32,394 nt of DNA from an uncultured Rhodospirillales bacterium. GTDB lineage: Bacteria; Pseudomonadota; Alphaproteobacteria; CAZCBM01. The position numbers were made by a program, and so were the translations under genes. Positions within the stretch are counted from its first letter, which is position 1. Each line of letters opens with the position of its first letter. The notes below the pieces were generated by a model. That model was not told the DNA's origin, ran no database searches, and worked only from the letters and a program-made list of their open reading frames with translations. The stretch lies in the NCBI GenBank assembly GCA_964496805.1, contig CAZCBM010000003.1:1-32394 (forward strand), in the 5' to 3' direction. Below, piece by piece: positions 2,124 to 18,591 of this stretch.

Positions 2124-2981
2124 ATGCTTGATGCGCTGATTTCCACCGCCGAGCTAAACGACATGCTGGGCACACCGGAACTGCGTCTGCTGGACGCCCG
2201 GCTCTATGTCCCTGGCATGGGGCGCGATGGCAATGCCGAGTACCGGGAGGCGCACATCAACGGCGCCATCCGCTATGACTTGGATGAATTCTCCGATCGG
2301 GAGAGTCGCTATCCTCACATGCTGCCCAGCGCGGAGAGCCAAGCCTTTATTCTGGGGCGCTTGGGGGTGGCATCTGACCATGATGTGGTCATCTATGACA
2401 CCATCCCGGGTCTGGGGGCCATGCGCCTGTGGTGGCAGATGAAGGGTCTGGGGCACAAGTCTGTGGCTGTGCTGGATGGTGGTTACGAGAAATGGGTGGC
2501 CGAAGACCGCCCCGTCGATGACTTCCCTGCCACGGCCCGACCCACGGACTATGTGCTGCCCCTTCGCCCGGGTCCGGAGGTCTTCGTTGATCTCAGCGAC
2601 GTGCAAATCGCCCTCAGCACCGGCAACGCTCAGGTGGTGGATGTTCGTCCGGCGGATCGCTTTTCCGGCGCCATCAAAGAGCCGCGGCCGGAATGCCGGT
2701 CCGGCCACATCCCGGGCAGCCGCAACGTCCCCTTCGTGGAGATCTTTCAGCCGGATGGTACGGTGGCGCCAGCCGATGTCATCGGCCGCAGCCTTACCGC
2801 CGCAGGGGTGGACCCGGGGCAGCCCATGATCCTGAGCTGCGGCAGCGGCGTTTCGGCTGCCGCGGTGGCCTTTGGTTTGCACGTCAAGATGGGCCTGTCC
2901 AGCGTGCGGGTCTATGATGCAAGCTGGTCGGAATGGGGCAGCCGTGAGGACCTGCCCCTGGAAACGGGCCCTGCGGCTTAG
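2124..2981 (+). CDS. sseA: 3-mercaptopyruvate / thiosulfate sulfurtransferase (tandem rhodanese)
   Basis: 285 aa with a two-rhodanese-domain layout. The active-site loop CGSGVSAA sits in the C-terminal domain, followed by SWSEWG. A GAAGGTGAG RBS precedes the ATG. Confidence 0.85.
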   Translation: MLDALISTAELNDMLGTPELRLLDARLYVPGMGRDGNAEYREAHINGAIRYDLDEFSDRESRYPHMLPSAESQAFILGRLGVASDHDVVIYDTIPGLGAMRLWWQMKGLGHKSVAVLDGGYEKWVAEDRPVDDFPATARPTDYVLPLRPGPEVFVDLSDVQIALSTGNAQVVDVRPADRFSGAIKEPRPECRSGHIPGSRNVPFVEIFQPDGTVAPADVIGRSLTAAGVDPGQPMILSCGSGVSAAAVAFGLHVKMGLSSVRVYDASWSEWGSREDLPLETGPAA

Positions 2982-3082
2982 GGAAAAAAGCTCAAGCCTA
3001 TGGTGGGCGCTTGCGGTGGTGTCTTCCGGGCTGGCCCATGGTCGTTTTGGGCTCTGACGGCCTGTGAGGGAGGGAGATTATC

Positions 3083-3916
3083 ATGAGAGGCTTTCGGCGG
3101 AACCGGGGGGCTACCGCCCTGACTTATGGGTTGGTTGTCGGGCTTGTGGCCGTGGCCGGCCTTTCGGCCGTGACCCGGATGGGGGATGCGATCGGCACCA
3201 ATTTCACCAATGTCTCCAGTACCTTGACCGATGCCGCAGAGCGTGGCGGCGGGTCCGTGGCCACCCTACCCACACCCACACCGATCCCGGAGATCATCGG
3301 CACAAGCTGTGCGGACGGGCTCAGCAACTATCCGAGCCTTCAGGACCAGGATGGGGTGTACACGGTGGACATGACCGGTGGGGACGACAGTGATGCCGAG
3401 CAGGTCTGGTGCGACATGACCTCAGAGGGCGGAGGCTGGACCTATCTTTGGGCAGCCCCATCGACAGGGCTCAGCGAGCCTGCGCTTGGCGCCAGTATCA
3501 GCTATGCCGGGACCGGCTCTTCCGGGTGCCTCAGCACGCGTGTGATCAGCAATACGGAAAGCGATTTCCAGTATTTCTATGCTTACAACTGTGCTGCTGC
3601 CCGTGCGCAGCTCACCTTCACTTGGTCCAATCCCATTGCCGCAACAGAGGTCCGGTTCGCGGCCGTCGCTGGGGGGAATAATCGGCTGTTGCGGTTGAAC
3701 GGCACCAACGTTCAACAGCTGAGCAGCGGCAAAGCCTACTTCTACAACGCCAACAGCTACAGCTGCAGCACCAACAATTGCTGGCGCAGCGCGATCACCA
3801 GTCAGGAGCCTCGCGCGGCGGCCTTCAGTGGCACATTGACTATTTTTACCCGTGGCGACGGTGACAACAACCAGTGGGGCGGATCCGGTGGGATCTGGCT
3901 TGTATCGGTGCGTTGA
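3083..3916 (+). CDS. Flp/Fap-type prepilin-like N-terminus fused to a secreted Cys-containing fibrinogen-like (CDMxxxGGGW) domain protein
   Basis: A strong RBS (GGGAGGGAG) lies 6 nt upstream of the ATG. The N-terminus MRGFRRNRGATALTYGLVVGLVAVAGLSAVTRMGDAIGTNFTNV matches the Flp pilin core. A Pro/Thr linker follows, then DGVYTV...VWCDMTSEGGGWTYLW. There are six Cys. GC is lower than in neighbouring genes (lines 3541-3600 and 3721-3780 are 43% and 53% GC by my count). Confidence 0.75.
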   Translation: MRGFRRNRGATALTYGLVVGLVAVAGLSAVTRMGDAIGTNFTNVSSTLTDAAERGGGSVATLPTPTPIPEIIGTSCADGLSNYPSLQDQDGVYTVDMTGGDDSDAEQVWCDMTSEGGGWTYLWAAPSTGLSEPALGASISYAGTGSSGCLSTRVISNTESDFQYFYAYNCAAARAQLTFTWSNPIAATEVRFAAVAGGNNRLLRLNGTNVQQLSSGKAYFYNANSYSCSTNNCWRSAITSQEPRAAAFSGTLTIFTRGDGDNNQWGGSGGIWLVSVR

Positions 3917-4171
3917 CCGGCGCACCGTTTGCCCGGTGGGTGGTGTCCATCTGCGTCTACTCCCACCCCGTGAGCCGTGCCTGCCGATGCTAAGGTTTAG
4001 AAGAGCGCCAGTGGGCCGGAGCGAATGGTCCTCCGACATTGGCGATAGCTCTCAAAGCTGTCTACGATGGCCCAGCGAACCCACCGAAGCAGCGCGACGC
4101 CGCCGCCAATCGCTCGCGTTGCTTCAGGGGGGCCGATCATCCTTCCTCCCTTGCCTTGTGTTGGCTGCCCC

Positions 4172-5368
4172 ATGACCTCCGACCGCTCCCGTCACAAGCC
4201 GGCCACCCGGGCTGCGCACATCGCCCGCCCTCGCGACCTCACCCAGGGTTTGGTCAATCCGGGGGTTTTCCGGGGCTCCACTGTTGTCTTTGAGGACTCT
4301 CAGGCGCTCAAAACCCCGCCGACGCTGGGCGGCAAGCGCTATGGTTACGGGCGACAGGGAACCGCCAATGCCCGATTGTTGGAGGAGGCGCTGACGGATC
4401 TGGAGGGTGGGCACGACTGCCAGGTGGCCGGAAATGGGGTCCAGATCATTGCCACTGTGCTGCAAGCGTTTCTCGCCTCAGGCGATCAAGTCCTGCTGCC
4501 GGACAATGTCTATGTTTCCTCCCGCACCTTTGCGTCGAAGTTTCTGGCCCCCCGTGGAATCCAGGTCACCTACTACAACAGTCAGGACCCGGATCATCTG
4601 GCCCATGTGGCGACGGACCGGGCGCGGCTGCTGGTGCTGGAGGCGCCAGGCTCCATGACCTTTGAGGTCCCCGAGTTGTCGGCGCTGATCGCCTTCGCGC
4701 ACAAACGCGGGCTGGTGACCATGTTGGATAACACCTGGGCAACGCCGCTGTTCCTGCGGCCCTTGGACCTGGGGGTTGATATCAGCGTCCATGCGGGAAC
4801 GAAGTACATCGTCGGCCACTCCGATGCCTTCATGGGCGCGGCCATCTGCAATCGACAGACCTGGGATCAGGTCAACCAGACCGCCATTCTGACGGGCGCC
4901 ATTGCCAGCCCTGACGATTGCTGGCTGGCCCTGCGCGGGGTGCGGACCATGGTCACACGGGTGGAGCAGCATCAGCGCGCGGCGCTGGCGGTGGCCCGGT
5001 GGTTGGAGGACACGCAGCCGGAGGTGGTGCAGGTGCTGCATCCAGGGCTGCCGAGCCATCCGGATCATGATCGCTGGAAACGCTATTTCACCGGATCCAC
5101 CGGCCTGTTCAGTATGATCCTGGAGGGGCATGATCCCGCCGCCACGGCAGCTTTCGTGGATGGGTTGGACTTGTTTGGCATCGGCTATAGCTGGGGCGGA
5201 TACGAGAGCTTGGCGCTGCCCAGCGATCCCACGGCGATCCGCACCACCACGGGCTGGCAAGCGCCAGGGGATCTGGTGCGCCTGCACATCGGCCTGGAGG
5301 CGGTGGAGGATCTTCAAGAGGACCTGGCAGCAGGGCTCGACCGACGCCGACAGCAGCGTCAGGGCTGA
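4172..5368 (+). CDS. metC: cystathionine beta-lyase (Cys/Met-metabolism PLP enzyme)
   Basis: The family motif VHAGTKYIVGHSD (PLP lysine) is present, with MetC-like length (398 aa) from the ATG at 4172 (MTSDRSRHKPATR...). The track start at 4067 adds 35 Pro-rich non-homologous residues. Confidence 0.85.
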   Translation: MTSDRSRHKPATRAAHIARPRDLTQGLVNPGVFRGSTVVFEDSQALKTPPTLGGKRYGYGRQGTANARLLEEALTDLEGGHDCQVAGNGVQIIATVLQAFLASGDQVLLPDNVYVSSRTFASKFLAPRGIQVTYYNSQDPDHLAHVATDRARLLVLEAPGSMTFEVPELSALIAFAHKRGLVTMLDNTWATPLFLRPLDLGVDISVHAGTKYIVGHSDAFMGAAICNRQTWDQVNQTAILTGAIASPDDCWLALRGVRTMVTRVEQHQRAALAVARWLEDTQPEVVQVLHPGLPSHPDHDRWKRYFTGSTGLFSMILEGHDPAATAAFVDGLDLFGIGYSWGGYESLALPSDPTAIRTTTGWQAPGDLVRLHIGLEAVEDLQEDLAAGLDRRRQQRQG

Positions 5369-5605: not shown

Positions 5606-7228
5606 CTACCCCTCAGCCACCTGCTGACGCAGGATGTGCTTTTGGACCTTGCCTGTGACAGTCTTGGCAATGGGTTCAAACCGGACTTCTGTGGGGCACT
5701 TGTAATGGGCGATGCTGGCACGGCAGTGGGCGATCAGATCCTCTGCTGTGGGTGCCGCGACCCCTTCTGCCAATTCCACAAACGCCACCGGTGTTTCGCC
5801 CCACTTAGGGTGGGGCTTCGCCACCACGGCGCAACTGGCCACCGCAGGGTGGGTGTAGAGGGCGTCCTCCACCTCGATGCTCGAAATATTCTCCCCGCCG
5901 GAGATGATAATGTCCTTCGACCGATCCCGAAGTTGGACATAGCCATCGGGATGGACGACGGCGAGGTCGCCGGTATGGAACCAGCCACCGGCAAAGGCTT
6001 TGTCAGTGGCGTCGCCGTCCTTGAGATATCCCTTCATGACCATATTGCCCTGCATCATCACCTCCCCCAGGGTTTCCCCATCGGCAGGCACGGGCAGCAT
6101 TGTGTCAGGGTCCGCCACCATCACCCCTTCCTGGGTGGGATAGGCAATGCCCTGGCGGGATTTCTTTTCTGCCTGCTGAGGGATCGGCAGGGCATCCCAT
6201 GCCTGATGCCACGCGCACACCATCGCGGGGCCGTAGACCTCTGTCAGCCCATAGGTGTGGGTGACGCTGATGCCTTTCTCGGCCATGGCCGCCAGGACGC
6301 TGGCCGGCGGTGGCGCGGCTGCAGTCATCATCTGCACCTTTTGATCGAAGGGCCGCGCCTCGGCTGTGGAAGCATTCAGGATCATCTGCATGACGATGGG
6401 CGCCCCACACAGGTGGGTCACCCCATGGTCGGCGAAAGCGTCATAGATGGGCTTGGGCGCCACCTTGCGCAGGCCCACATGGGTGCCGCCAAGGGCAGTG
6501 ATGGTCCACGGGAAGCACCAGCCGCTGCAATGAAACATCGGCAGCGTCCACAGATAGGTGGGCTGCAAGCCCATGCCGCCCCAGGCCAAAACGTTGCCCA
6601 CCGCGGTCAGATAGGCACCGCGGTGACTGTACAGCACTCCCTTGGGTCGGGCGGTGGTGCCGGAGGTGTAGTTGAGCGTCAGCGGGGCCCACTCGTCCTC
6701 CGGCAGGGACCACGCAAAATCAGGATCGCCTGCCGCCAGCAGGTCCTCATACTCGCAGTCCCCAAGCCGTTCGCCACCGGGGCCCACCGGATCGTCGATG
6801 TCGATCACAGGCGGTGGATTGTCCAGACGGGCCAGAGCCTCCTTCACAAGGGGCGCATGCTCGGTATCGCTCAGCAGCAGCTTTGCCTCGCCATGCTCCA
6901 GGATGGTGGCCACCATGCCAGGGTCCAGGCGGGTATTGATGGGGTTCAGGATGGCTCCCAGCATGGGAACACCGTGCAGCGCCTCCCACATGGCCGGGAT
7001 GTTTGGTGCCAGGATCGCCACCACATCGCCCTTGTGGATCCCACGCTGCCCCAAGGCCGAGGCCAGGCGCCGACAGCGGGCATAGACCTCAGACCAGGTG
7101 TGCCGGACGGGGCCATGGATGAAGGCCGGATGATCCGGATAGCCGAGGGCCGCTCGGGGGAGGAAGCTGAGCGGAGAGAGCGGCGCGTGGTTGGCTTCGG
7201 TGCGGGGCAGGGGATCAGGCTGGGTCAT
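5606..7228 (-). CDS. AMP-dependent acyl-CoA synthetase (medium/short-chain type)
   Basis: Adenylate-forming motifs are intact: YTSGTTARPKGV (A3), YGLTE, HTGD...RSKDIIISGGENISSIEVE (A7/A8) and KTVTGKVQK (A10). The N-terminus ANHAPLSPLSFLPRAA is typical of this subfamily. No SD sequence precedes the ATG. Confidence 0.9.
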   Translation of the reverse strand: MTQPDPLPRTEANHAPLSPLSFLPRAALGYPDHPAFIHGPVRHTWSEVYARCRRLASALGQRGIHKGDVVAILAPNIPAMWEALHGVPMLGAILNPINTRLDPGMVATILEHGEAKLLLSDTEHAPLVKEALARLDNPPPVIDIDDPVGPGGERLGDCEYEDLLAAGDPDFAWSLPEDEWAPLTLNYTSGTTARPKGVLYSHRGAYLTAVGNVLAWGGMGLQPTYLWTLPMFHCSGWCFPWTITALGGTHVGLRKVAPKPIYDAFADHGVTHLCGAPIVMQMILNASTAEARPFDQKVQMMTAAAPPPASVLAAMAEKGISVTHTYGLTEVYGPAMVCAWHQAWDALPIPQQAEKKSRQGIAYPTQEGVMVADPDTMLPVPADGETLGEVMMQGNMVMKGYLKDGDATDKAFAGGWFHTGDLAVVHPDGYVQLRDRSKDIIISGGENISSIEVEDALYTHPAVASCAVVAKPHPKWGETPVAFVELAEGVAAPTAEDLIAHCRASIAHYKCPTEVRFEPIAKTVTGKVQKHILRQQVAEG

Positions 7229-7458
7229 GGGGCAGTGGGTGGCATGTCAAAGGGTGGGGTGGGAGAGCGATAGGGCAGTGCGGCGATCGTGACCTGCTGG
7301 CTCGGCGACAAACAGAAGGGGGAAGGGTCGGGCCACCTGGATCGCAGACCGCGCCAGCCCCACCAGGAGGGGCAACGGAGCCTTCTGAGGAGCGAACGTT
7401 AGCGACCATGGAGGATGCCTCACGGATGCCCGCGGGACAAAGGGCTGCTGCACATCAG

Positions 7459-7468
7459 ATTGTACAAT
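7459..7468. promoter_or_regulatory. perfect 10-bp palindrome ATTGTACAAT in the 343-bp gap inside the liu gene string (candidate operator or promoter element)
   Basis: Read directly. It is flanked by two CATCTGGA direct repeats (7476-7483 and 7490-7497) and lies in a locally AT-richer patch. Confidence 0.25.
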
Positions 7469-7571
7469 GATGGGGCATCTGGAATGGGCCATCTGGATCA
7501 AGGCCCGCTATCCCTCTTCACCCTTTCCCCTATGGTTGCGTCCCCCATTCATCCCCGTCGGTCCGGTGATT

Positions 7572-8381
7572 TCACAGCGCCCAGGGTGGTTTCGCCCGCT
7601 CAAAGAAGGCGCCGATCCCGTCCGCGGCTTCTTGCGTTTCCCACGCGTCCGCCAGAGCAACGGCGGAGGCATGGGCGAGATCGACACCGGGCTGATCCGC
7701 AACGCTGTGCAGCAGGGCCTTGGCGCGGGCAACCGCGCCGGGGGCACATTTCATCAGCGCCTTGATCTCCTGCTCTACAGCCTGGTCCAGGGCGTCAGCC
7801 GGAACCACGCGGTGCACCAAGCCCAGCGTCCTGGCCTCCGCGGCGTCGAACAGTCGCCCATGCATGAACACCGTCCGCGCTGCTCCCGGGCCCATCCGGC
7901 GGATGACGAAACTGGAGATGTTGGCTGGAATGATGCCCAGCTTAGTCTCAGTGAACGCAAAGCGGGCCCCCTCGGCGGCGATGGTGACATCGCCCACGGC
8001 CATCAGGCCCAGTCCACCACCAAAGGCCTGCCCGTTTACCCGGATGATCAACAGCTTGGACAACCGATCCAGAGCGCGCAGCATATCGGCCAGGGTGCGG
8101 CTTTCCGTGATCCTGCCGTCGCGGCTGTTGGCCGCCTGATCCTGCATCCAGGCCAGATCGCCACCGGCGCAGAAACTGGTGCTGCCGGTGCCTGTCAAAA
8201 CCACCGCCCGCAGATTTTCATCGCCATCCGCCACCTCGGCCATGCGCTGGAGGTCGGCAATCATCTGCGGGTTCATGGCATTGTGCTTATCGGGGCGATT
8301 AAGGCTCACCCATGCAATGCCCCGGTCCTCGATGGTGACCGCCAAGCTGTCAAAGGACTGGGCCGCCAGTCCGCTGCTCAT
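7572..8381 (-). CDS. liuC: enoyl-CoA hydratase family; by context methylglutaconyl-CoA hydratase
   Basis: Crotonase motifs FCAGGDL and GGGLGLMAVGDV...FTETKLGIIP are present. The start overlaps the upstream ligase stop (ATGA at 8378-8381). It sits among the other liu genes. Confidence 0.8.
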   Translation of the reverse strand: MSSGLAAQSFDSLAVTIEDRGIAWVSLNRPDKHNAMNPQMIADLQRMAEVADGDENLRAVVLTGTGSTSFCAGGDLAWMQDQAANSRDGRITESRTLADMLRALDRLSKLLIIRVNGQAFGGGLGLMAVGDVTIAAEGARFAFTETKLGIIPANISSFVIRRMGPGAARTVFMHGRLFDAAEARTLGLVHRVVPADALDQAVEQEIKALMKCAPGAVARAKALLHSVADQPGVDLAHASAVALADAWETQEAADGIGAFFERAKPPWAL

Positions 8382-10012
8382 TGGCTTGCCTCTTGGATAT
8401 GCTGGGCCTGGATCTTCTTGCGATCCGGGCCGCCGGCGATGCGGGGGAAGTCCGTCACGAACCGGATGACGCGGGGATACTCATGGGCGCCCAACCGGCT
8501 TTTGACATAGCCCCGGATGGCCTCTTGCGTTTCTGTTGAGGGGTCAGCGCCCTCCTTCAGGACGATCCACGCGCCCACCACCTCAGTCCGCTTCTCGTCG
8601 GGAACGCCAAACACTGCCGCCGCCGCAACGGCCTCGTGGGTTTCCAGGTGGCGTTCGATCTCGGCCGGGCCGATGCGATAGCCAGCGGAGGTGATCACAT
8701 CATCCACCCGACCGGCCCAACTGACATAGCCGTCCTCATGCTGCACCCCATAGTCGCCCGTATAGAGCCAGCCGCCGCGGATCTTCTGCGCCGTGGCGTC
8801 GGGGTCGTTCCAGTATTCCAGCATCATGACCGGGTCCGGGGCCTTGATGGCGATCAGCCCCGTTTCCCCCACCGGCATGGGGTTGGCGTCCACATCCAGG
8901 ACCGCAACGGTGCGTCCCGGTGCCGGTTTGCCCAGCTTGAAAGGCTTGGCCTCCATGATCCGGGCATTGGTGCCGACACAGGCATTGCACTCGGTCTGGC
9001 CATAGTAATCGTGCATCTTGCAGCCGAAGACTTGCTCTGACCAGTCCTGCAACTCGGGTGTGAAGGGTTCGCCACCGCTGATGATCGCGCGGACCTTCAG
9101 GTCATAGCGTGCGCCGAGGTCCGGGTCCTCCCGCAGCACTTTGCTGGCGGTGGGGGGCAGGAACATGCAGGTGATGCCTTCGTCCTGCATCAACTGGAAA
9201 GTGGCGGCTGGCTCAAACCGTTGGGCGCGATTGGCAACGGTGGGCCGGCCCAGCAGCAGGGCGGGGAACAGGCAGCACAGCGAGCCGGCAATGAAGCCCC
9301 AGTCGGCGGGAGTCCAGAACACATCTGCCCCGTCCTCCGTGGGGAAATCCAGGCCCATTTCCACCCCAGTCATGCCCCCATGCACCACCGAATGCGGCAG
9401 CAGGGTGCCGTTGGGATCCCCGGCACCGGCGGCCGCGTAGTACAACAGTGCGGGATCGCTGGCCCCCGTGTCCACGCAGGGGAAGCTATCCGAATGGCCC
9501 TGGGTGGCCTCCCGCAGATCGCTGACACCCTCGGTCGCTCCGTCAATGCTGAAGACGGCTGTCAACGCGGGCAGGGTGCTGCGCACACTGGCCAGTTTCT
9601 CCACGCCGGACGCGTCAGTGATCAGGGCCTTGGCGCTGGCGTGGCTCAGACGGAATTGCAATGCCTCCGCCATGAAGATGGGGGCCAGTGGCATCAGGAT
9701 CGCGCCCATCTTCAGGACCGCCAGATAACCAGCGGCAGCCGCGAAACTCTGCGGCAGAAACACGCCCACGCGATCCCCGCGCGTGACGCCAGCGGCAGTC
9801 AGGGCATGGGCGATGCGACTTGCCTCCGCCTCCAATTGGGCGAAGTCGTAGGAGGCGCCCTCCGCCCCGGGCTCAACGATCGCAACCCGACCCGGGGCCT
9901 CCCCGGCCCAGCGGCTGCAACAGGCCTGCGCGATGTTCAGCCGCTCCGGAAGGGTCCAGCGGAAACCCTCTATCAGGGCATCGTAACTGTCGGCGGGGGT
10001 CAGCACGGGCAT
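8378..10012 (-). CDS. AMP-binding (acyl-CoA synthetase) family paralog with degenerate P-loop and A10 motifs
   Basis: It aligns along its full length with the ligase at 26702-28327. YGQTE and TGD...GRVDDVITSAGYRIGPAEIE are conserved. The A3 loop reads YYAAAGAGDPNG instead of YTSGTTGPPKG, and the C-terminal motif reads PRIAGGPDRKK instead of PLTATGK. Confidence 0.85.
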   Translation of the reverse strand: MPVLTPADSYDALIEGFRWTLPERLNIAQACCSRWAGEAPGRVAIVEPGAEGASYDFAQLEAEASRIAHALTAAGVTRGDRVGVFLPQSFAAAAGYLAVLKMGAILMPLAPIFMAEALQFRLSHASAKALITDASGVEKLASVRSTLPALTAVFSIDGATEGVSDLREATQGHSDSFPCVDTGASDPALLYYAAAGAGDPNGTLLPHSVVHGGMTGVEMGLDFPTEDGADVFWTPADWGFIAGSLCCLFPALLLGRPTVANRAQRFEPAATFQLMQDEGITCMFLPPTASKVLREDPDLGARYDLKVRAIISGGEPFTPELQDWSEQVFGCKMHDYYGQTECNACVGTNARIMEAKPFKLGKPAPGRTVAVLDVDANPMPVGETGLIAIKAPDPVMMLEYWNDPDATAQKIRGGWLYTGDYGVQHEDGYVSWAGRVDDVITSAGYRIGPAEIERHLETHEAVAAAAVFGVPDEKRTEVVGAWIVLKEGADPSTETQEAIRGYVKSRLGAHEYPRVIRFVTDFPRIAGGPDRKKIQAQHIQEASQ

Positions 10013-10038
10013 GAGAGTCAGGCTCCTCTGGCGACAAC

Positions 10039-10057
10039 TGATCCGGGGCCCGGATCA
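10039..10057 (-). other. intercistronic hairpin overlapping the HMG-CoA lyase stop codon
   Basis: TGATCCGG pairs with CCGGATCA (8 bp, 3-nt loop). No U-tract follows. The RBS AGAGGAG of the next gene comes immediately after. Confidence 0.3.
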
Positions 10058-10933
10058 GGAAACGGTTGCGGCAGCCGGGGTGATGAGACGGCGAATGTGG
10101 GTGGCGGCCAGGGTCAGGGAGTCCCTGTCGATGCCATGGCTGAGCCCCAGCTCCTCCACCACATCCAACACTGTTTCAGTGGCTACATTGCCCCGGGCGC
10201 CTGGCGCATAGGGGCATCCGCCCAGCCCCGTAACGGCGCTGTCCACATGGCGCAGTCCCCGCTCCAGACTAAGCCGCAGCGTCTCGGCGGCACGGCCATT
10301 GGTGTCATGATAGTGGGCTGCCAGGCGGTCCGCATCGGCCACCTCAAGCACGGCATCCAGCATGGCACCAATACTCTCCGGCGTGCCCCGTCCCACGGTG
10401 TCACCCAGGCTGACCTGCTCCACCCCTTCGGCCAACAGCCCTTCGGTGACGCGGGCCACCGCCTGGGGTGCGATGGGGCCTTCGTAGGGGCAGACCACCA
10501 CGGTGGAGACGTAACCCCTCACCGGTATGCCATCGGCCTTGGCGGCCGCAAGAATCGGCCGGAATCGCTCAAAGCTCTCGGCGATAGAGCAGTTTATGTT
10601 CTTCTGACTGAAGGTCTCGCTGGCCGCGGCAAACACCGCCACAGCGTCCGCCCGCGCCTCGCGCGCTGCTTCATAGCCCTTCATATTAGGCGTCAGGACA
10701 CTGTAGCGCACGCCCGGTGCCCGGATGATCGCGGCCATCACCGCCCCGGCATCTGCCATCTGCGGCACCCATTTGGGGCTGACGAAGGCCGTCGCCTCAA
10801 TCTCCTGAAAACCGGCCGCGCTGAGCAGGTTGATCAGCTGAACCTTGTCACTGGTGGACACCGGGGTGCGTTCATTCTGTAGGCCGTCGCGGGGGCCCAT
10901 CTCGTGGATGGTGACAAAGGCGGGGTCGGTCAT
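10055..10933 (-). CDS. liuE: hydroxymethylglutaryl-CoA lyase
   Basis: Motifs GPRDGLQNE, EATAFVSPKWVPQMAD and GLGGCPYAPGARGNVATE are present. The start overlaps the carboxylase alpha stop (ATGA). Confidence 0.9.
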   Translation of the reverse strand: MTDPAFVTIHEMGPRDGLQNERTPVSTSDKVQLINLLSAAGFQEIEATAFVSPKWVPQMADAGAVMAAIIRAPGVRYSVLTPNMKGYEAAREARADAVAVFAAASETFSQKNINCSIAESFERFRPILAAAKADGIPVRGYVSTVVVCPYEGPIAPQAVARVTEGLLAEGVEQVSLGDTVGRGTPESIGAMLDAVLEVADADRLAAHYHDTNGRAAETLRLSLERGLRHVDSAVTGLGGCPYAPGARGNVATETVLDVVEELGLSHGIDRDSLTLAATHIRRLITPAAATVS

Positions 10934-13020
10934 GGCGTTACCGGTGCCTCCTGTTCCTCCTCGGCGAGACGAATGAGGACAGTGCCTTCACTCACCAGCG
11001 CGCCCGCCTCCGCCCCGACGCTCTCCACCGTACCGGCGCGGGGGGCACGCAGGGTGTGTTCCATCTTCATGGCCTCAACGATGATGAGGGGCTGGTCCTT
11101 CTCTACGGCGTCCCCTGGCTTGACCAGAACATCCCGCACCACACCGGGGAGATCAGCCGTGATGACGGGTTCAGCCGCCAACTCGTCATGGTCCATCTCG
11201 CCGACGATGTTGTCCCGCAGCAGGAACAGGCGGTCCGTCAACTCAAAGAACAGCCGGCCATCCTCCAGCACATAGTCCCGCACATTGTAGGAGGGCTCGC
11301 CGTTTGCCGTGCCCTCATAGGAACCCCACTGGTTGGGTGCCCAAGCGGCTGTCCCTTCGCCAAGCCCTGGCACCGCCAGGGTGACGGTGATGGCCCGGTC
11401 CCCCGTGCGCTGGCATCGCAGCAAGCCCGATAGGCGCTGGCCATTGACCTCCGCCGCCACCGGATAGCTCAGGGTCCCAAACTGGGTGAAGCCCGCCTGG
11501 GAGGTCCAGGGCGAGGTGCTCCCCTCCTTCGGGCGTTTTCGCTGCTGCCACGCTGGCAAAAGCGAAAGTGCCATGTCCGCCAGATGGCCGGGGCTGGTGA
11601 CCTCTTGGATGGGTCCCAGAAGGCTGTCCCCATGCCGGTCGATGAAGCCGGTGTCGATGAGCCCCGCGCCGAAGTCCGGGTGCTCCAGACACTTTACCAG
11701 AAAGCTGCGGTTGGTCTTGCACCCTTCCACCAGGGAACAGCGCAGGGCCTCCGAGAGGGCCGTTACCGCGGACTCCCGATTGGGTTCATGGGCGATCAGC
11801 TTGGCGATCATCGGATCATAGAAGGGCGTGACGACGCTGCCGCGGACAACGCCCGTGTCCAGCCGGATGCGGTCGGATCCGCGCCCATGGGTGAAAGGGG
11901 TGGCATAGTCATCGACATAGCCGGCCAAAAAGGACAGTCGGCCGGTGGAGGGAAGGAAGCCGCTGTCCGGGTCCTCAGCATAGAGCCGGGCTTCGATGGC
12001 ATGACCTGAGATGGCAAGCTCATCCTGGGATTTGGGCAAGGGCTCGCCCTGCGCCACCCGCAACTGCCACTCCACCAGATCTTGACCGGTGATGGCCTCC
12101 GTAACCGGATGCTCCACTTGCAGGCGGGTATTCATCTCCATGAAATAGAAGCGGTCCGCCTGTAGACCTTCCGAGACGTCGGCGATGAACTCGATGGTGC
12201 CCGCCCCCACATAGTCGATGGCCTTGGCCGCTTTCACCGCCGCCTCACCCATGGCCGCCCGCATGGCCTCGCTCATGCCAGGGGCTGGCGCTTCCTCAAT
12301 CACCTTCTGGTGGCGGCGTTGCAGGCTGCAATCACGCTCGAACAAGTGCACGACGGACCCGTGAGTGTCCCCAAACACCTGGATTTCGATGTGGCGCGGT
12401 GTGGTCAGGAACTTCTCGATCAGGACCCGGTCATCGCCGAAACTGTTGGCGGCCTCGCGCTTGGCACCGGCCAGCGCCGACGGCAAGTCCGCTGGTTCAT
12501 CCACCCGCCGCATGCCCTTGCCACCACCGCCAGCCACGGCCTTGATAAGGACGGGATACCCGATCCGGCCAGCCTCTGCGGCCAAGGTCTCCGGCGCCTG
12601 ATCCTCCCCTTGATAGCCCGGAACAACGGGAACCCCGGCCTCAATCATCAGTCGCTTGGCTGCGTCCTTCAGGCCCATGGCGCGGATGGAGGATGACGAG
12701 GGGCCAACAAAGATGATCCCGGCGGCGGCCAGCGCGTCAGCGAAGTCCGCGTTTTCCGACAAAAAGCCATAGCCCGGATGGACCGCGTTTGCCCCGGTCT
12801 GATGGCAGGCGTCGATGATCCGATCTGGCCTGAGATAGCTTTCCGCCGCGGGTGGCGGGCCGATGGCCACCGCTTCGTCTGCCATGGCAACATGGCGGGC
12901 ATTGGCGTCAGCCTGAGAATACACGGCCACCGTGGGGATCTGCATCTGACGGGCCGTGTGGATCACGCGGCACGCGATTTCCCCGCGATTGGCGATCAGC
13001 AGCTTATGGATCTTTCCCAT
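10930..13020 (-). CDS. liuD: methylcrotonyl-CoA carboxylase alpha (biotin carboxylase + BCCP) subunit
   Basis: Has KLLIANRGEIACR, an ATP-grasp region and the biotinylation motif EAMKMEH near the C-terminus. I prefer the ATG at 13020 (GAGGAT RBS 7 nt upstream) over the GTG at 13035 used by the track. Confidence 0.9.
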   Translation of the reverse strand: MGKIHKLLIANRGEIACRVIHTARQMQIPTVAVYSQADANARHVAMADEAVAIGPPPAAESYLRPDRIIDACHQTGANAVHPGYGFLSENADFADALAAAGIIFVGPSSSSIRAMGLKDAAKRLMIEAGVPVVPGYQGEDQAPETLAAEAGRIGYPVLIKAVAGGGGKGMRRVDEPADLPSALAGAKREAANSFGDDRVLIEKFLTTPRHIEIQVFGDTHGSVVHLFERDCSLQRRHQKVIEEAPAPGMSEAMRAAMGEAAVKAAKAIDYVGAGTIEFIADVSEGLQADRFYFMEMNTRLQVEHPVTEAITGQDLVEWQLRVAQGEPLPKSQDELAISGHAIEARLYAEDPDSGFLPSTGRLSFLAGYVDDYATPFTHGRGSDRIRLDTGVVRGSVVTPFYDPMIAKLIAHEPNRESAVTALSEALRCSLVEGCKTNRSFLVKCLEHPDFGAGLIDTGFIDRHGDSLLGPIQEVTSPGHLADMALSLLPAWQQRKRPKEGSTSPWTSQAGFTQFGTLSYPVAAEVNGQRLSGLLRCQRTGDRAITVTLAVPGLGEGTAAWAPNQWGSYEGTANGEPSYNVRDYVLEDGRLFFELTDRLFLLRDNIVGEMDHDELAAEPVITADLPGVVRDVLVKPGDAVEKDQPLIIVEAMKMEHTLRAPRAGTVESVGAEAGALVSEGTVLIRLAEEEQEAPVTP

Positions 13021-13031
13021 GCCAGTGATCC

Positions 13032-14639
13032 TCACATGCGGAAGACGCCGGGGCGCCAGTCGGGGATGGGCTTGTTCAGCGCCGCGGAGAAGCTGAGCGC
13101 CACGACGCTGCGGGTGTCCCGGGGATCTATAATGCCGTCATCCCACAGCCGTGCCGAGGAATAGATCGGGCGCCCTTGGTGCTCGAACTGGTCTTGATAG
13201 GGGCGCTTGAATGCCGCCTCCTCCTCGGCGCTCCACGTGCCGCCCTTGGCTTCGATGGCATCGCGGCGCAGGGTCGCCAGAACCCCGGCCGCTTGGTCCC
13301 CGCCCATGACGCTGATCCGGGCGTTGGGCCACATCCACAGGAAGTTTGGGCTGTAGGCTCGCCCCGCCATGCCGTAGTTCCCGGCGCCGAAACTGCCCCC
13401 AATCAGCACCGTCACCTTGGGCACATTGGCCGTGGCCACCGCGGTCACCAGTTTGGCGCCGTCCTTGGCAATGCCGCCGCTTTCATATTTGCGGCCCACC
13501 ATGAAGCCGGTGATGTTCTGCAAGAACAGCAGCGGGATCTTCCGTTGGCAGCACAGTTCAATGAAGTGAGCGCCCTTGAGGGCTGCCTCGCTGAACAGGA
13601 TGCCATTATTGGCCAAGATGCCCACCGGCATGCCATGGATGTGGGCGAAGCCGGTCACCAGCGTCTGGCCGTAGAGGTGCTTGAACTCATCCAGTTCGCT
13701 GCCATCCACGACCCTGGCAATCACTTCCCGCACATCATAGGGCTGCTTGAGATCGGCGGGGACAACCCCATGAAGCTCCGCTGGATCGTGGATCGGTGGG
13801 CGCGGGTCCCGCATCACCAACTGATCGGGCTTGGCGCGGTTCAGGTGGCCGACGATCCGTCGGGCCATGGCACAGGCATCGGCATCGTCGGCGGCATAAT
13901 AATCGCTGACGCCGGACACCTTGGCATGGACATCCGCCCCCCCCAGGTCCTCGGCGCTCACCACCTCCCCAGTGGCGGCCTTCACCAGGGGCGGCCCTCC
14001 CAAGAAGATGGTGCCTTGGCGACGCACGATGATGTTCTGCTCGCTCATGGCGGGGACGTAGGCACCCCCGGCGGTGGAAGAGCCCATCACGACGCTGATC
14101 TGCGGGATGCCCGCCGCACTCATCGTGGCTTGGTTGTAGAAGATGCGGCCAAAATGATCCCGGTCTGGGAAGACTTCGTCCTGATTGGGCAGGTTGGCTC
14201 CGCCGCTGTCCACCAAGTAAACGCAGGGCAGGTTGTTCTGGGCCGCGATCTCCTGCGCGCGTAGATGCTTCTTCACCGTCAAGGGGAAGTAAGTGCCACC
14301 CTTCACCGTGGCGTCGTTCGCCACAATCATGCACTCCAGCCCCTTGATCCGGCCCACCCCGGTGATCATCCCGGCCGAGGGAACCTCATCGCCATACATC
14401 TCGGCGGCTGCAAACAGACCCACCTCCAGGAAGGGGGAGCCCCGGTCCAGCAGGTGGGCGATGCGATCCCGAGGCAGCAGTTTGCCGCGCGCCAGGTGCT
14501 TCTCCCGGGCACGCTCTGGCCCCCCGTGTTGGATGCGCTGGGCCAGGGCGGCGACGTCCTCCACCTGTGCCGCCATAGCGTCAGCATTGGCCTGGAACGC
14601 GGGCGAGGATGGATTGATTTTGGTGGGCAGCGGGCGCAT
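13032..14639 (-). CDS. liuB: methylcrotonyl-CoA carboxylase beta (carboxyltransferase) subunit
   Basis: 535 aa with a two-lobed carboxyltransferase layout ([26 protein letters not shown]; GGAYVPAM). The start overlaps the isovaleryl-CoA dehydrogenase stop by 1 nt (TGATG). Confidence 0.9.
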
Positions 14640-15811
14640 CAGGCGGTCTCTTGAAACAGCTCGCGGCCGATCAGCATGCGACGGATCTCGCTGGTGCCAG
14701 CGCCGATCTCATACAGCTTGGCGTCGCGTAGCAGGCGGCCGGTGGGATAATCATTGATGTAGCCATTGCCCCCCAGGGCCTGGATCGCCTCCAGCGCCAT
14801 CCAGGTTGCCTTTTCAGCCGCGTAGAGGATGGCGCCAGCCGCATCCTTGCGCGCCGTCTCCCCCCGGTCGCAGGCCTGAGCCACCGCATAGACATAGGCT
14901 TTGGTGGCGTTCATCGTGGTGTACATGTCAGCAATCTTGCCCTGCATCAGCTGAAATTCACCGATGGCGCGGCCGAACTGTTTGCGCTCGTGAATGTAGG
15001 GGATCACCACGTCCATGCAGGCCTGCATCAGCCCGGTGGAACCAGCCGCCAGCACCGCGCGCTCATAGTCCAGGCCACTCATCAAGACGCGCGCACCGCG
15101 GTTTAACTCCCCCAGGATGTTTTCCTCGGGCACTTCGCAATCTTCAAACACCAATTCGCCGGTGGGGCTTCCCCGCATGCCCAGCTTGTCCAGCTTCTGG
15201 GCAACGCTGAAACCCTTGAACTCCTTCTCGATCAGAAACGCCGTGATGCCCTTGGAGCCGGCGTCGGGATCGGTTTTGGCATAGACCACGAGCGTGTCAG
15301 CCTCCGTGCAGTTGGTGATCCAGAACTTGCTGCCGTTCAGCACATAGCGATCGCCCTTCTTCTCCGCCCGGGTTTTCATGGACACGACGTCTGACCCGGC
15401 CCCGGGTTCGCTCATGGCCAGGGCGCCCACATGCTCGCCGCTGATCAACTTGGGCAGATAGCGGGCCTTCTGCTCGTCGGTGCCGTTCAGATTGATCTGG
15501 TTGATGCACAGATTGGAATGAGCGCCGTAGCTCAGGCCGACGCTGCCAGAGGCGCGGCTGACCTCCTCCATGGCGATGCAGTGCTCCAGATAGCCAAGGC
15601 CGGTGCCGCCCTGCGCCTCCGGAACGGTGATGCCATGCAGCCCCAGGTCCCCCATGGGCTGCCACAGCTCCCGGGGGAAGCGATCGGTGCGGTCGATCTC
15701 TGCGGCCAGGGGAGCAATCTGTTCTTGGGCGAAGCTGGCCACGGTCTGGCGCAGCATCTCAGCGGTTTCACCCAGATTGAAGTTCAGCGTGGGATACTCG
15801 TTGGGGATCAT
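14639..15811 (-). CDS. liuA: isovaleryl-CoA dehydrogenase
   Basis: ACAD motifs [17 protein letters not shown] and [19 protein letters not shown] are present. It has IVD-like length (390 aa) and sits directly upstream of the carboxylase genes. Confidence 0.9.
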
Positions 15812-15859: not shown

Positions 15860-16363
15860 TTAGACAAGCCGCTCGTCGCTCATGCCTTCCATTCGGATCA
15901 TGGTCATCAGGGCCTTGGCGATCAGGGTTCTCTGGCCATCTTTCTCTGCCTCCACGGTGCCGTCCACCACATTCAGGGTGCGACCAGGCTTGATGACAAC
16001 GCCGGTGGCAATCAGGCGCTCTCCCTGCGCTGGGCTCAGAAAATTGATCTTGTACTCCGTCGTCAGCGGCGCGGCCGTGGCCGGGTAGAGGCTCATGGCG
16101 GCATAGCCACAGGCGCTGTCGCAGATACAGGCCACGGCGCCGCCGTGGACATACCCATGCTGCTGCAACACCGGCTCGGCATAGGGCAGCACCACTTGGA
16201 AATAGCCGGGGGCAACAACGCCCACATGGGCACCAAGGGTTGCCATCAGCGGCTGTCGGCTAAAGCTGTCCCTCACCCGCTGCTCGAAGGCCGGATCCTT
16301 CGGCTCAAACGGCGGTGGCGGTGGGGCGAGGCTGGCTGCTGTCGCCACGTCGGCCGCCCTCAC
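15860..16363 (-). CDS. PaaI-family hotdog-fold thioesterase
   Basis: Motif QQHGYVHGGAVACICDSACGYAA with a hotdog-size domain. The GTG start overlaps the LivF-like stop (GTGA at 16360-16363). Confidence 0.8.
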   Translation of the reverse strand: MRAADVATAASLAPPPPPFEPKDPAFEQRVRDSFSRQPLMATLGAHVGVVAPGYFQVVLPYAEPVLQQHGYVHGGAVACICDSACGYAAMSLYPATAAPLTTEYKINFLSPAQGERLIATGVVIKPGRTLNVVDGTVEAEKDGQRTLIAKALMTMIRMEGMSDERLV

Positions 16364-17199
16364 AGCCAGCGCTTGCGACGGCGGAAACTCTTGATGTCCT
16401 TGAAGGACTTGCGCTCGCCGCTGCCGCCGCCCAGGTAGAACTCCTTGACGTCCTCGTTATTGCGCAAATCCTCTGCCCGGCCATCCAGAACGATCTTGCC
16501 CTGTTCCATGATGTAGCCGTACTGAGCGATGCCCAGCGCCATATTGGCGTTCTGCTCCACCAGCAGAATGGTGATGCCCAAGTCCCGGTTCAGCCGTCGG
16601 ACAATGGAAAACACCTCCTTCACCAGCAACGGCGACAGGCCCATGGAGGGCTCGTCCATCAACATCAGCTTGGGACGGGCCATCATGGCGCGGCCGATGG
16701 CCAACATCTGTTGCTCGCCGCCAGAGAGATACCCTGCCAGTCCCGTGCGCTCCTTCAGCCGGGGAAAGTAGTGGTAGATCTTCTCGATCTCTTCGCGAAC
16801 GTTGCTTTGCTTCTGGGTGAAGGCACCCAGGCGCAGGTTTTCCTGAATGGTCATGTCCTGGACGATGCGTCGACCCTCCATCACCTGGAAGATCCCTTGA
16901 CGCACGATCTTCTCCGGCGGCAGGTGGGTGATGCTCTGCCCTGCGAAGCGGATATCGCCGCGCTCAACCTCGCCATTCTCCGTGCGCAGGAGGCCACTGA
17001 TGGCCTTTAGCGTGGTGGATTTGCCGGCGCCATTGGCCCCCAGCAGGGCTGTGATGGATCCTGGCATCACCTGCAGGCTCATGCCGCGCAAGACCTGGAT
17101 CACATGGTCATAGACCACCTCGATATTATCCACCACCAGCATGGGCTCGGTGGCGCTTTCCCCTTTGGGGGTGGGATCAGCAGTGGTGTCCAGGGGCAT
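16360..17199 (-). CDS. ABC transporter ATP-binding protein, LivF-like
   Basis: Walker A GANGAGKST and the signature plus Walker B LSGGEQQMLAIGRAMMARPKLMLMDEPSMGL are present. It ends in an unusual basic C-terminal tail, KSFKDIKSFRRRKRWL. Confidence 0.9.
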   Translation of the reverse strand: MPLDTTADPTPKGESATEPMLVVDNIEVVYDHVIQVLRGMSLQVMPGSITALLGANGAGKSTTLKAISGLLRTENGEVERGDIRFAGQSITHLPPEKIVRQGIFQVMEGRRIVQDMTIQENLRLGAFTQKQSNVREEIEKIYHYFPRLKERTGLAGYLSGGEQQMLAIGRAMMARPKLMLMDEPSMGLSPLLVKEVFSIVRRLNRDLGITILLVEQNANMALGIAQYGYIMEQGKIVLDGRAEDLRNNEDVKEFYLGGGSGERKSFKDIKSFRRRKRWL

Positions 17200-17248
17200 T
17201 GGCGCAAGGGCTCCCAGCCGGGTTGGGGACCATCAACATTCACAAACG

Positions 17249-17285
17249 AAAAAACAGGGGGAGGGGCGGCAGGGCCGCCCCTCCC
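17249..17285 (-). terminator. strong intrinsic terminator or attenuator between the binding-protein gene and the LivF-like gene
   Basis: On the minus strand, GGGAGGGGCGGC-CCT-GCCGCCCCTCCC forms a perfect 12-bp stem (17259-17285), followed by CCTGTTTTTT (A-run at 17249-17254 on the plus strand). It begins 9 nt after the stop at 17294. Confidence 0.7.
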
Positions 17286-17293
17286 AGCAGATA

Positions 17294-18520
17294 TCAGCGG
17301 CCCAACCAGCGCGGGTCACGCTCCAGCACCACCGTGTCCAACTGCTCCAGCTCAGCGGCGCCGAAGACGAAGGACCCCCGGTTGATCACCACCTGCATGG
17401 TGCCGCGGTGGTCGCTGTCGGTCCAAATGGACGGCTGGCAGACGCCCTCCAGGCCGGCGGGCACCCAGCCGCCCTCAGCTGCATGGGCGGCGGAATGGGC
17501 ATACATGCCCTGACGGATACCGGGGCCGGTGATCTCCCCATTCTCCGCCTTTGCCCATTCCATGGCTTCCTTCATGTAATAGGCGGTGCAGACGCCACGC
17601 AGATAGTGGTGGGTGGGGTTGGCGTCGGTGGGCTTGCCCGCCTGCTCCAGGATCGCGGTGATGGTGGCCATGCCCGGCACGTCAGTGCCATAGGGCGGGT
17701 TGGCGGAGGGGAACATCAACTCGCTGGCCTCAGCGGCCTTGATCGTCTCCTCATCGCCGCCCCAGACATTGGCCATGAACTGGGTCTCAACGCCGGCGGA
17801 GGAGCAGGACTTCAGCAGCGCGACGACGGAGCCGCCCAGGTTGCCGATCCAGGTGTATTCCGCCCCGCTCTCGCGGATGGACAGGCACTGCGGGGTGAAG
17901 TCACCGGGGGCCAGCGGCACCACGATGGGCTCCAGGACCTCGAAGCCCAACTCAGCGGCCCATTCGGCGCAGGCTTCCTTAGGGGCGTTGGGGTAGGGGT
18001 GGTTGTCGCCGGTGTGCAGGAACTTCGGGTTCTCGATCCCGCGCTCCTTGGCATCATTGGCAGCCCACTGGACCAGCGCCCGGCAGCCATCGGTGTAGCT
18101 GGGGCCATAGAAGAAGTTGTACGGGCTGTTGGACGGGTCGGTCAGGTGCCCGGAGTAGGAGGCGGACCAGGTCGGGACTTGGTCGTTCTTGACGATGTCC
18201 ACCAGCGCTTCGGTGTCGGCGGTGCCCCAGCCCTGGAGGGCCACCATACCGCGGGCCTGCCAGTCACGATAATAGGACAGGGCTTGGTCCACCTTATAGG
18301 CGTAGTCGACCGTATCCATGTTGATGGTGGTGCCGTCGATGCCGCCATTGGCGTTGATGTAGGCAACAGCGTCGGCGATGGCCGGGCCATAGAAGCTGCC
18401 GACGAAGGCAGTGGCACCGGTGAAGTCCACCAGGTGGCCAACGAACACCTCGTCGGCCTTGGCGGCGGAGACGCCGGCGGAAAGGGCCAGCGCAGTGGTG
18501 AGTACAAGAGCCTTCTTCAT
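17294..18520 (-). CDS. periplasmic substrate-binding protein, LivK/type-I PBP-like
   Basis: From the ATG at 18520, the signal peptide is MKKALVLTTALALSAGVSAAKA|DE, with a GGGAGGA RBS 10 nt upstream. It has PBP-like length (408 aa). The track start at 18640 adds 40 non-signal residues. Confidence 0.85.
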   Translation of the reverse strand: MKKALVLTTALALSAGVSAAKADEVFVGHLVDFTGATAFVGSFYGPAIADAVAYINANGGIDGTTINMDTVDYAYKVDQALSYYRDWQARGMVALQGWGTADTEALVDIVKNDQVPTWSASYSGHLTDPSNSPYNFFYGPSYTDGCRALVQWAANDAKERGIENPKFLHTGDNHPYPNAPKEACAEWAAELGFEVLEPIVVPLAPGDFTPQCLSIRESGAEYTWIGNLGGSVVALLKSCSSAGVETQFMANVWGGDEETIKAAEASELMFPSANPPYGTDVPGMATITAILEQAGKPTDANPTHHYLRGVCTAYYMKEAMEWAKAENGEITGPGIRQGMYAHSAAHAAEGGWVPAGLEGVCQPSIWTDSDHRGTMQVVINRGSFVFGAAELEQLDTVVLERDPRWLGR

Positions 18521-18591
18521 GGCGATAGAGTCCTCCCAGGACAAGTTATGGTTGCTTTGGGCCAAGGGTCGGCAGGGGGGCGGAACGGATC

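Follow-up and report, generated by a model that had tools for sequence, protein, structure and literature searches.

A Flp-type prepilin module joined to a fibrinogen-like GGGW domain: a candidate modular Tad pilin from an uncultured alphaproteobacterium

Flp pilins are the smallest pilins, built from a single helix, and so far they have been treated as pure building blocks. The locus described here raises the question of whether such a helix can also carry something much larger than itself. It lies in a stretch of 32,394 nucleotides from an uncultured Rhodospirillales bacterium (contig CAZCBM010000003.1 of assembly GCA_964496805.1, forward strand), which is called the window in what follows, and consists of an open reading frame (ORF) on the + strand (3083..3916, 277 amino acids, ATG start). 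A Shine-Dalgarno-like sequence, GAGGGAGGGAG, can be read at 3066..3076 (+), 6 nt 5' of the ATG. An initial annotation, made from the letters of the window, had described the product as a Flp-type prepilin leader followed by a fibrinogen-like GGGW domain, and hidden Markov model, profile and structure tests agree on this two-part make-up. Comparison with its relatives places the gene in a multi-paralog family in which one conserved leader, without the glutamate usually found at mature position 5 (Glu5), is set in front of several unrelated modules.

The ORF has a 92%-identical ortholog at the same genomic position in a separate sequencing run, SRR28027657. The ratio of nonsynonymous to synonymous substitutions (dN/dS) between the two genes is 0.079 at dS = 0.55 and is low in all regions of the protein (leader 0.063, linker 0.043, domain 0.087). 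Because dN/dS is around 0.08, the ORF is taken as a real, constrained gene, and the comparison indicates an expressed gene under purifying selection, not a reading frame that arose by chance in DNA rich in GC. Compared with that of the rhodanese gene beside it, the dN of the ORF is larger by a factor of about 14.

The N-terminal part of the protein, residues 1-53, can be assigned to a genuine Flp pilin module on the basis of several comparisons. The Pfam family Flp_Fap (PF04964) is matched by residues 8-47 with E = 2.4e-7 and 30.9 bits, 1.3 bits under the gathering score of 32.2. A leader profile of 52 columns (alignment A2), constructed from the leaders of the window protein and its relatives and searched against 5.8 billion proteins, retrieved 1,222 proteins at E <= 1e-3, essentially all of which are short PF04964 Flp pilins; among the matches listed there are "Flp family type IVb pilins" of 54-89 amino acids with identities of 41-65%. 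When the sequences of the PDB are compared with the leader profile, the only matches are Tad pilins from filaments studied by cryo-electron microscopy, 8U1K (PilA) and 8U2B/8UCR. The alignment begins at residue 1 of the mature Tad pilins (ATAIEYGL), with ATAIEYGLIVALIAV... set against ATALTYGLVVGLVAV..., and runs for 36 residues. The Flp/Fap type IVb core proposed in the initial annotation is thus recovered by the Pfam match, the leader profile and the PDB pilins, and both the Caulobacter PilA sequence given there and the G|A cleavage context agree with the alignment to 8U1K from its first residue.

Since this alignment starts at mature residue 1 of 8U1K/8U2B, which corresponds to A10 of the window protein, cleavage by a prepilin peptidase of the TadV/CpaA type is predicted at G9|A10. 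The basic prepilin leader M1-G9 (MRGFRRNRG; 3083..3109, +) has the corresponding layout, being short, basic and Gly-ended, with a small residue next (MRGFRRNRG|A). It is followed by a full Flp-type pilin helix from A10 to about E53 (ATALTYGLVVGLVAVAGLSAVTRMGDAIGTNFTNVSSTLTDAAE; 3110..3241, +), delimited by means of the Flp_Fap match, the leader profile and the PDB alignment. The median mature length of canonical Flp pilins is 43 amino acids, and residues 10-53 would be the equivalent of one whole mature Flp pilin. The full-length AlphaFold2 (AF2) model, generated from a mixed alignment of the window protein and 14 homologs (A1), consists of a single helix at residues 13-53 and then coil; its predicted local distance difference test score (pLDDT) is 47, and its secondary structure alone was used. 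With 277 amino acids, against 54-85 for the canonical Flp matches, the protein is longer than a helix-only pilin. At mature position +5, where Glu is usual, it has Thr14 (3122-3124, +), as had been noticed before, whereas Tyr15 at +6 is kept.

Between the pilin helix and the C-terminal domain there is a flexible linker, R54-T74 (RGGGSVATLPTPTPIPEIIGT; 3242..3304, +), in which Gly is followed by Pro and Thr; it is read directly from the sequence and is coil in both models. Linkers rich in Pro, Ser and Thr are found at the equivalent place in all family members. The domain itself begins with a fibrinogen-like A-subdomain and the CDMxxxGGGWT strand (residues 75-121; 3305..3445, +) and continues, according to the AF2 model, as a beta-sandwich (residues 122-277; 3446..3913, +) that closes with a terminal strand ...WLVSVR. 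The protein has six Cys residues, of which C76 and C110 occupy the positions of the first disulfide of the fibrinogen-related domain (FReD), and Cys149, 170, 228 and 233 belong to the remainder; the Pro/Thr linker and the six-Cys domain had both been read correctly in the initial annotation.

The FReD signature that had been seen in this domain, together with a RefSeq family name suggested for it, corresponds to NCBIfam NF040941 (GGGWT_bact, "fibrinogen-like YCDxxxxGGGW domain"), which is matched by residues 75-121 with 45.3 bits against a cut-off of 30. Pfam Fibrinogen_C (PF00147) reaches only 16.8 bits, below the 22 required, with residues 88-122 covering positions 14-46 of the profile (33/221). 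Pfam COLFI is under threshold too, and its match is limited to the same GGGW segment. A profile of the domain family matches FReD structures with E = 1e-10 to 1e-5, confined to profile positions 5-69; the structures matched are an intelectin-type serum lectin, fibrinogen beta, tenascins, XEEL, FIBCD1, ficolins and angiopoietins. From these matches the A-subdomain and the first strand are clearly homologous to FReD.

As regards the part of the domain downstream of the GGGW motif, the initial annotation had stated that it does not resemble the distal subdomains of canonical FReDs, and the restriction of the profile match to the N-terminal part, the AF2 model and the fold search all bear this out. 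An AF2 model of the C-terminal domain, computed from the alignment of its 431 relatives (see below), has a pLDDT of 86.6 and a predicted TM-score (pTM) of 0.86, and is composed of a short helix, FReD-like strands and then a beta-sandwich of about 10 strands. Foldseek found no match for this model in the PDB at E <= 1e-3; the best, weak matches are beta-sandwiches of carbohydrate-binding modules, and TMq values are 0.36-0.39 with the procollagen C-propeptide (COLFI) and 0.28 with fibrinogen fragment D. In the viral library BFVD there were weak matches to phage receptor-binding modules and no confident fold. On the other hand, hhalign aligns the domain with P0008, a family member with a full canonical FReD, at 96% probability over 145 columns. 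The label of canonical FReD fold was rejected, no confident fold assignment having come from the PDB or BFVD, and so was a domain unrelated to FReD, in view of the profile matches to FReD structures and the hhalign result. The remainder of the domain may be remotely derived from FReD, and from the sequence and model data we conclude that the domain is a putative extracellular binding module of the FReD/COLFI superfamily with a core diverged from the canonical FReD.

An exhaustive phmmer search with residues 60-277 gave 431 relatives, and the same module without a pilin leader occurs in hundreds of proteins. Many of the 431 are giant proteins in which the GGGW segment is repeated up to about 15 times. 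P0135, P0136, P0138, P0146 and P0167 are giant proteins 3,100-4,500 amino acids long that contain 9-17 GGGW copies, with a spacing of about 250 residues in P0135; secreted adhesin-like proteins thus have whole arrays of the FReD-like module. The full domain of 200 residues is matched by around 30 of the 431, one of them P0137 (42% identity). In these full-domain relatives the domain is nearly always at the extreme C-terminus, ending ...V.VR, and it is preceded by Sec-type signal peptides, Cys-rich repeats or Asp-rich repeats of the DGDG type. The region downstream of the GGGW motif, which had been overlooked in the initial annotation, is on this evidence a widespread conserved C-terminal module.

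The end of the module (3890-3913 of the window, columns 301-309 of alignment A3) deserves a separate description. Nearly all full-length homologs of the domain end in a hydrophobic residue, any residue, a second hydrophobic residue and R or K, with nothing after (KLFVR, VAVR, VSVR), and the same is true of family members with a canonical FReD or an ALK-type glycine-rich domain (ALK-GRD; MMMR, YRFR). The conserved terminal strand might serve to close the structure, or might act as a C-terminal signal.

The gene had been regarded as an orphan, a description that does not hold, as can be seen from its homologs. The first homolog search gave 14 proteins, and all of them except the ortholog share residues 1 to about 120 alone with the window protein. 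In the alignment of these 14 with the window protein (A1, 15 proteins) Flp_Fap is matched by every sequence (15/15), Fibrinogen_C by 8/15 (best E = 1e-34) and the ALK/LTK glycine-rich domain by 4/15 (E = 3e-31); other Cys-rich modules are carried on the same leader elsewhere in the family. The consensus consists of the leader RGATALTYGLVVGLVA.AGL.AVTR.G.S...LF..VSSTL, a P/S/T-rich linker and then the differing modules. At least seven members are found on three contigs of one alphaproteobacterial metagenome-assembled genome (MAG), GCA_054603435.1, two of them in tandem and one interrupted by an in-frame stop. Besides, the sample of the ortholog also has ALK-GRD and glycine-rich members, and that of the window protein has another FReD-like member. 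Each time the neighbours of family members are unrelated housekeeping or metabolic genes, among them groESL, aspS, GTP cyclohydrolase I and a bufferin-like gene set.

Two of these loci merit comment. In a member of the MAG at L004:10001-10840, which combines a G5 leader (Gly at +5) with a FReD-like CDMTRNTGGWT domain, residue 85 is followed by an in-frame stop; the copy is either a pseudogene or the result of an assembly error. Its fragment is the 85-residue "Flp" protein P0059 of the database, which was considered as the canonical short Flp of the MAG and rejected as such, being this truncated G5 member. At the other locus, the ALK-GRD member P0006 (L089:206-2272) is directly 3' of, and on the same strand as, a bufferin-like set coding for a ribosomally synthesised and post-translationally modified peptide (BufA1, MbnB/TglH/ChrH, HvfC_N); this may be a coincidence or may reflect co-regulation with metal stress.

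The family is very rare, with about 20 protein clusters among the 5.8 billion proteins. The leader pattern [RQ]GATAL[TS]Y[GR]L was found at no locus in 185,579 species-representative genomes, and a scan of JGI metagenomes for the leader gave one weak match of 22 residues, L005. The last homolog search, with the S5 and G5 variants of the leader, added three truncated fragments (P0285, P0286 and P0289), the rest of its matches being canonical Glu5 Flp pilins.

The manner in which the leader has been conserved is informative. Among paralogs its first 15 residues are identical, while the third positions of the conserved codons are 31-64% identical. Since the residues are identical and the synonymous sites are scrambled, the leader is maintained by purifying selection on the peptide, with no recent gene conversion, and a shuffling of leaders as cassettes was rejected for the same reason. 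Selection at the level of the peptide speaks against a generic membrane anchor or Sec signal; a conservation of this kind would be expected for recognition by a peptidase or by an assembly machine.

The other family trait concerns mature position 5. Among 119 canonical Flp pilins obtained with the leader profile, Glu is found at +5 in 117, Tyr at +6 in 118 and Ala at +1 in 117, and one of the two exceptions to Glu5 is P0059, the truncated family member mentioned above. Among the 16 long relatives Glu5 occurs in none (0/16), position +5 being occupied by Thr, Ser or Gly, and Gly-1, a small residue at +1 and Tyr+6 are kept in nearly all (P0012 has Thr at +6). In place of Ala+1, P0059 has Val and P0012 has Ser. 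The replacement of Glu5 by Thr noticed in the window protein is thus one case of an absence which, judging by the alignment, is common to the family. The partner of Glu5 in type 4 filaments is the N-terminal amine of the next subunit above, and tip complexes are capped by a subunit without Glu5 (PMC10191384, PMC9934059).

The reading favoured here, held tentatively and with somewhat less than an even chance of being right, is that of a modular pilin of the Flp type (type IVc/Tad) that, for want of Glu5, serves as the cap or primer of a Tad pilus and displays a binding module. The hydrophobic helix would insert the protein into the inner membrane, and a TadV/CpaA-type prepilin peptidase would cut MRGFRRNRG off at G9|A10. 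Because it is bulky and has no Glu5 to neutralise the N-terminus of a subunit above, the protein would be taken up first, as the distal subunit or as part of the Tad priming complex. The growing filament of ordinary Glu5 Flp subunits would then push it out through the secretin, and the flexible linker would present the disulfide-stabilised binding module at the pilus tip. Paralogs with the same leader and different modules might give alternative tips with different ligand specificities. Cleavage, incorporation into a pilus, position at the tip and binding of a ligand are all predictions. That the module is extracellular is suggested by its homologs, which end secreted adhesin-like multi-repeat proteins, and by its weak fold matches to carbohydrate-binding and phage receptor-binding beta-sandwiches. 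The tip or minor-pilin adhesin proposed in the initial annotation fits, by analogy, the established biology of type 4 filaments.

Several observations weigh against this proposal. The Pfam score for Flp_Fap is slightly under its curated cut-off. The Tad tip subunits known so far (TadE/F, CpaJ/K/L, KilLMN) are folded like TadE pilins and not as Flp helices, and their genes usually lie within tad or tip operons or close by; nor does the Flp helix have a globular head for docking into a tip complex. No tad or cpa gene and no prepilin peptidase were found in the 32 kb of the window, as the initial annotation had indicated (its remaining ORFs are metabolic), or within 10 kb of nine family loci inspected, flanks that say little about whole genomes. 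In favour of the proposal, a canonical Glu5 Flp gene with matching GC, P0288 (57 amino acids; L088:1267-1440), comes from the sequencing run that also contains the window protein. It is followed by a strong intrinsic terminator (GGGGCGGGAAACCGCCCC + TTTTT) and preceded by a gene with a TerB domain, and no tad genes were found on its contig of 1.85 kb. P0288 is a candidate major pilin, but it attests no more than the occurrence of a conventional Flp in the community sampled.

Three other explanations of the leader have to be considered. It might act as a class III sorting signal independent of a pilus, so that the peptidase cleaves the protein, which is then released or displayed at the surface by a Tad-like or type-II-secretion-like route and is no structural subunit. 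One leader on many unrelated extracellular modules, in at least seven copies per MAG, scattered and none of them in pilus operons, is what this would predict, and the loss of Glu5, which is needed for polymerisation, suits substrates that do not polymerise. Archaeal proteins with class III signal peptides, such as sugar-binding proteins, are precedents for this use of the signal, as is cargo pushed by a short pseudopilus. However, the conservation spans the entire helix of about 45 residues, including its amphipathic C-terminal half (AVTR.G.S...LF..VSSTL), which would be superfluous for a cleavage signal, and cleavage would leave the protein anchored by its hydrophobic helix in the inner membrane, short of an extraction by a filament or piston; this explanation is considered unlikely. 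Improbable too is that the Flp-derived helix is a mere uncleaved N-terminal transmembrane anchor, or a Sec signal cut by signal peptidase I, with a module tethered in the periplasm or set free there and no involvement of Tad machinery. The N-terminus does have the generic layout of basic and then hydrophobic residues, the hallmark Glu5 of functional pilins is gone, no Tad genes are near the family members and the Flp_Fap score does not reach its gathering threshold. Nevertheless, in generic anchors and signal peptides one does not find the conservation of individual residues that is seen here for 15 consecutive residues among old paralogs with saturated synonymous sites; Gly-1, Ala+1 and Tyr+6 are kept in nearly all members (P0059 and P0012 excepted), the profile matches are restricted to Flp pilins both in the 5.8 billion proteins and in the PDB, and the relatives of the module are extracellular domains of the adhesin type with no obvious ligand in the periplasm.

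The third explanation accepts incorporation into a Tad filament and differs in the position of the subunit, which would be a minor pilin that decorates the shaft at low frequency, its module hanging off by the 20-residue linker. [quoted passage not shown] On the other hand, a subunit without Glu5 is unable to neutralise the N-terminus of the subunit above, and in the systems in which such subunits have been studied they are restricted to the distal end (PMC10191384, PMC9934059), so that decoration of the shaft has only a slight chance of being correct. The capping or priming modular pilin can also be given a broader form, which is possible, though doubtful. The Glu5-less Flp leader (G|ATALTYGLVVGLVA...) would then define an unrecognised sorting and assembly class in an uncultured alphaproteobacterial lineage, and one Tad-type machine could accept at least seven alternative "warhead" subunits, all of them complete Flp helices joined to differing extracellular modules (divergent or canonical FReD, ALK-GRD, other Cys-rich domains), swapping the specificity of its tip or exporting modules in the manner of pilins, without minor pilins of the TadE/F/G type as carriers.

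Compared with known systems, the favoured modular pilin is closest in its N-terminal part to the Flp/Fap major pilins (Caulobacter PilA 8U1K, Aggregatibacter Flp1, PF04964). It shares with them the basic leader ended by Gly, Ala+1, Tyr+6 and a hydrophobic stretch of about 20 residues followed by an amphipathic helix, whereas it has Thr for the near-invariant Glu5, a predicted mature length of 268 amino acids instead of about 43, and a gene that is not beside tad/cpa genes. Modular pilins as such are established in the type IVa/b systems, with PilB (von Willebrand factor A module) and PilC (lectin module) of Streptococcus sanguinis as examples (PMC8179133, PMC9934059). More than 1,200 modular pilins have been surveyed on the basis of IPR012902, a survey that does not cover the Flp-type family PF04964 and has no mention of Flp or Tad, and bulky modular pilins are thought to be located at the tip (PMC8179133). 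PilB and PilC resemble the window protein in the sequence of pilin module, linker and a binding module that is not specific to pili, as well as in the tip display proposed for both, and a module of the lectin type is plausible in the window protein. The difference is that they have the class III signal peptide of type IVa/b pilins (N-methylation motif IPR012902) and a globular pilin head, and that PilC has a typical Glu5 (PMC9934059), while the window protein has a bare Flp helix without Glu5.

A pilin-like N-terminus with a large C-terminal domain and a predicted position at the tip is likewise found in CpaL, of the TadG type, from Caulobacter crescentus and in KilN from the Kil Tad system of Myxococcus, where four interchangeable tip sets are parallel to the paralogs with different modules described here. 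However, the pilin folds of CpaL and KilN are TadE-like, made of a helix and a beta-sheet, and for both a heterotrimer with two other minor pilins is predicted, and kilLMN are organised in dedicated gene clusters, whereas the present family consists of scattered single genes that use the Flp helix itself. The capping minor pilins GspK/PulK, PilK and PilA of S. sanguinis share the absence of Glu5, which is an accepted mark of the most distal subunit (PMC10191384, PMC9934059), but they are unrelated in sequence, belong to type II secretion or type IVa systems and act in a HIJK-type complex encoded by one operon. With regard to the module, the Cys...Y.(I/V)D......(V/F/Y)CDM...GGGWT segment is common to the window protein, NF040941 proteins and the FReD lectins of animals (ficolins, tenascins, intelectins). 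The terminal strand ...V.VR presumably resembles the C-terminal strand ..MKIRP of FReDs. Unlike the animal lectins, the window domain is modelled as a beta-sandwich with a TM of about 0.28 to fibrinogen, and its match to Fibrinogen_C is partial and under the cut-off.

In the literature searched, neither the fusion of a Flp helix with a globular module nor a prepilin leader on an NF040941 protein was found described. New would be the modular-pilin principle, known before, on the Flp helix, and so would the family itself, which comes from uncultured alphaproteobacteria. Should a bare Flp helix carry a 200-residue binding module, it would be the simplest "carrier plus effector" pilin known, and the principle, demonstrated so far for type IVa/b and TadE/G-like subunits, would extend to subunits of the major-pilin type in type IVc systems. 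The joint loss of Glu5 and gain of a bulky module would be a natural experiment on the rule that subunits without Glu5 cap type 4 filaments. How Tad tips come by their specificity is being studied actively, with CpaL in Caulobacter and the Kil tips in Myxococcus as cases, and the family offers a testable case with many interchangeable modules and a leader near enough to Caulobacter PilA for heterologous testing. Its genes are now unnamed or tagged weakly as Flp_Fap or Fibrinogen_C.

The genomic setting of the gene is metabolic. It is flanked upstream by a gene similar to rhodanese/3-mercaptopyruvate sulfurtransferase (2124..2981, +; Pfam Rhodanese), which abuts metC in relatives, and downstream by a pyridoxal phosphate (PLP) enzyme of Cys/Met metabolism, MetC-like (4067..5368, +; Pfam Cys_Met_Meta_PP), which probably starts downstream of 4067. 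Among 80 related loci there are about 25 in which no more than 0-150 bp separate the end of the rhodanese gene from metC, in agreement with the earlier statement that the gene interrupts a cluster. Since relatives have the abutting pair, and the window and the sister strain have an 834-bp gene between rhodanese and metC, the gene is an insertion into a widely conserved pair, and the acquisition suggested in the initial annotation is backed by this synteny. The statement that the gene is richer in AT than its neighbours stands for third codon positions, whose GC content (GC3) of 0.727 is the lowest of the 24 genes of the window (z = -1.95), but the effect on total GC is modest (0.614 against a window mean of 0.635, z = -0.9). 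As to signs of a mobile element, repeats flanking the gene, whether direct or inverted, were not found, nor was an Rfam family or a convincing promoter or terminator call next to it. The closest relative of MetC in the 185,579 species genomes has 51% identity, and the matches are spread over several alphaproteobacterial orders, which points to an organism from an unrepresented alphaproteobacterial lineage.

The rest of the window contains a CysK-like PLP enzyme, the rhodanese and MetC-like genes already mentioned, a catabolic cluster, an ABC transporter, acyl-CoA ligases and dehydrogenases, and a thiolase. The catabolic cluster, contiguous and of the leucine/isovalerate type, extends over 5606-15811 (-) and includes two AMP-binding acyl-CoA ligases, an enoyl-CoA hydratase, an HMG-CoA-lyase-like enzyme, a biotin carboxylase with biotinyl carrier, a carboxyltransferase and an acyl-CoA dehydrogenase. 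At 16360-23789 (-) there is an ABC transporter of the branched-chain-amino-acid type, made up of two ATPases, two permeases and a periplasmic binding protein, with a 659-residue AMP-binding enzyme embedded between a permease and the second ATPase; the lowest GC of the window (0.57-0.59) is found in two of these genes. At the beginning of the window, an ORF of 214 amino acids (2-646, +) with high GC3 and no Pfam match has a gene call on the Logan contigs of both strains (L003 2-619, L087 2-622) and is probably a real conserved hypothetical gene. Finally, an ORF of 329 amino acids at 25557-26546 (+), flanked by acyl-CoA dehydrogenase and acyl-CoA ligase genes, has a weak partial match to haem-binding proteins of the ChaN/Tiki type (E = 4.8e-7, with no stretch passing alone).

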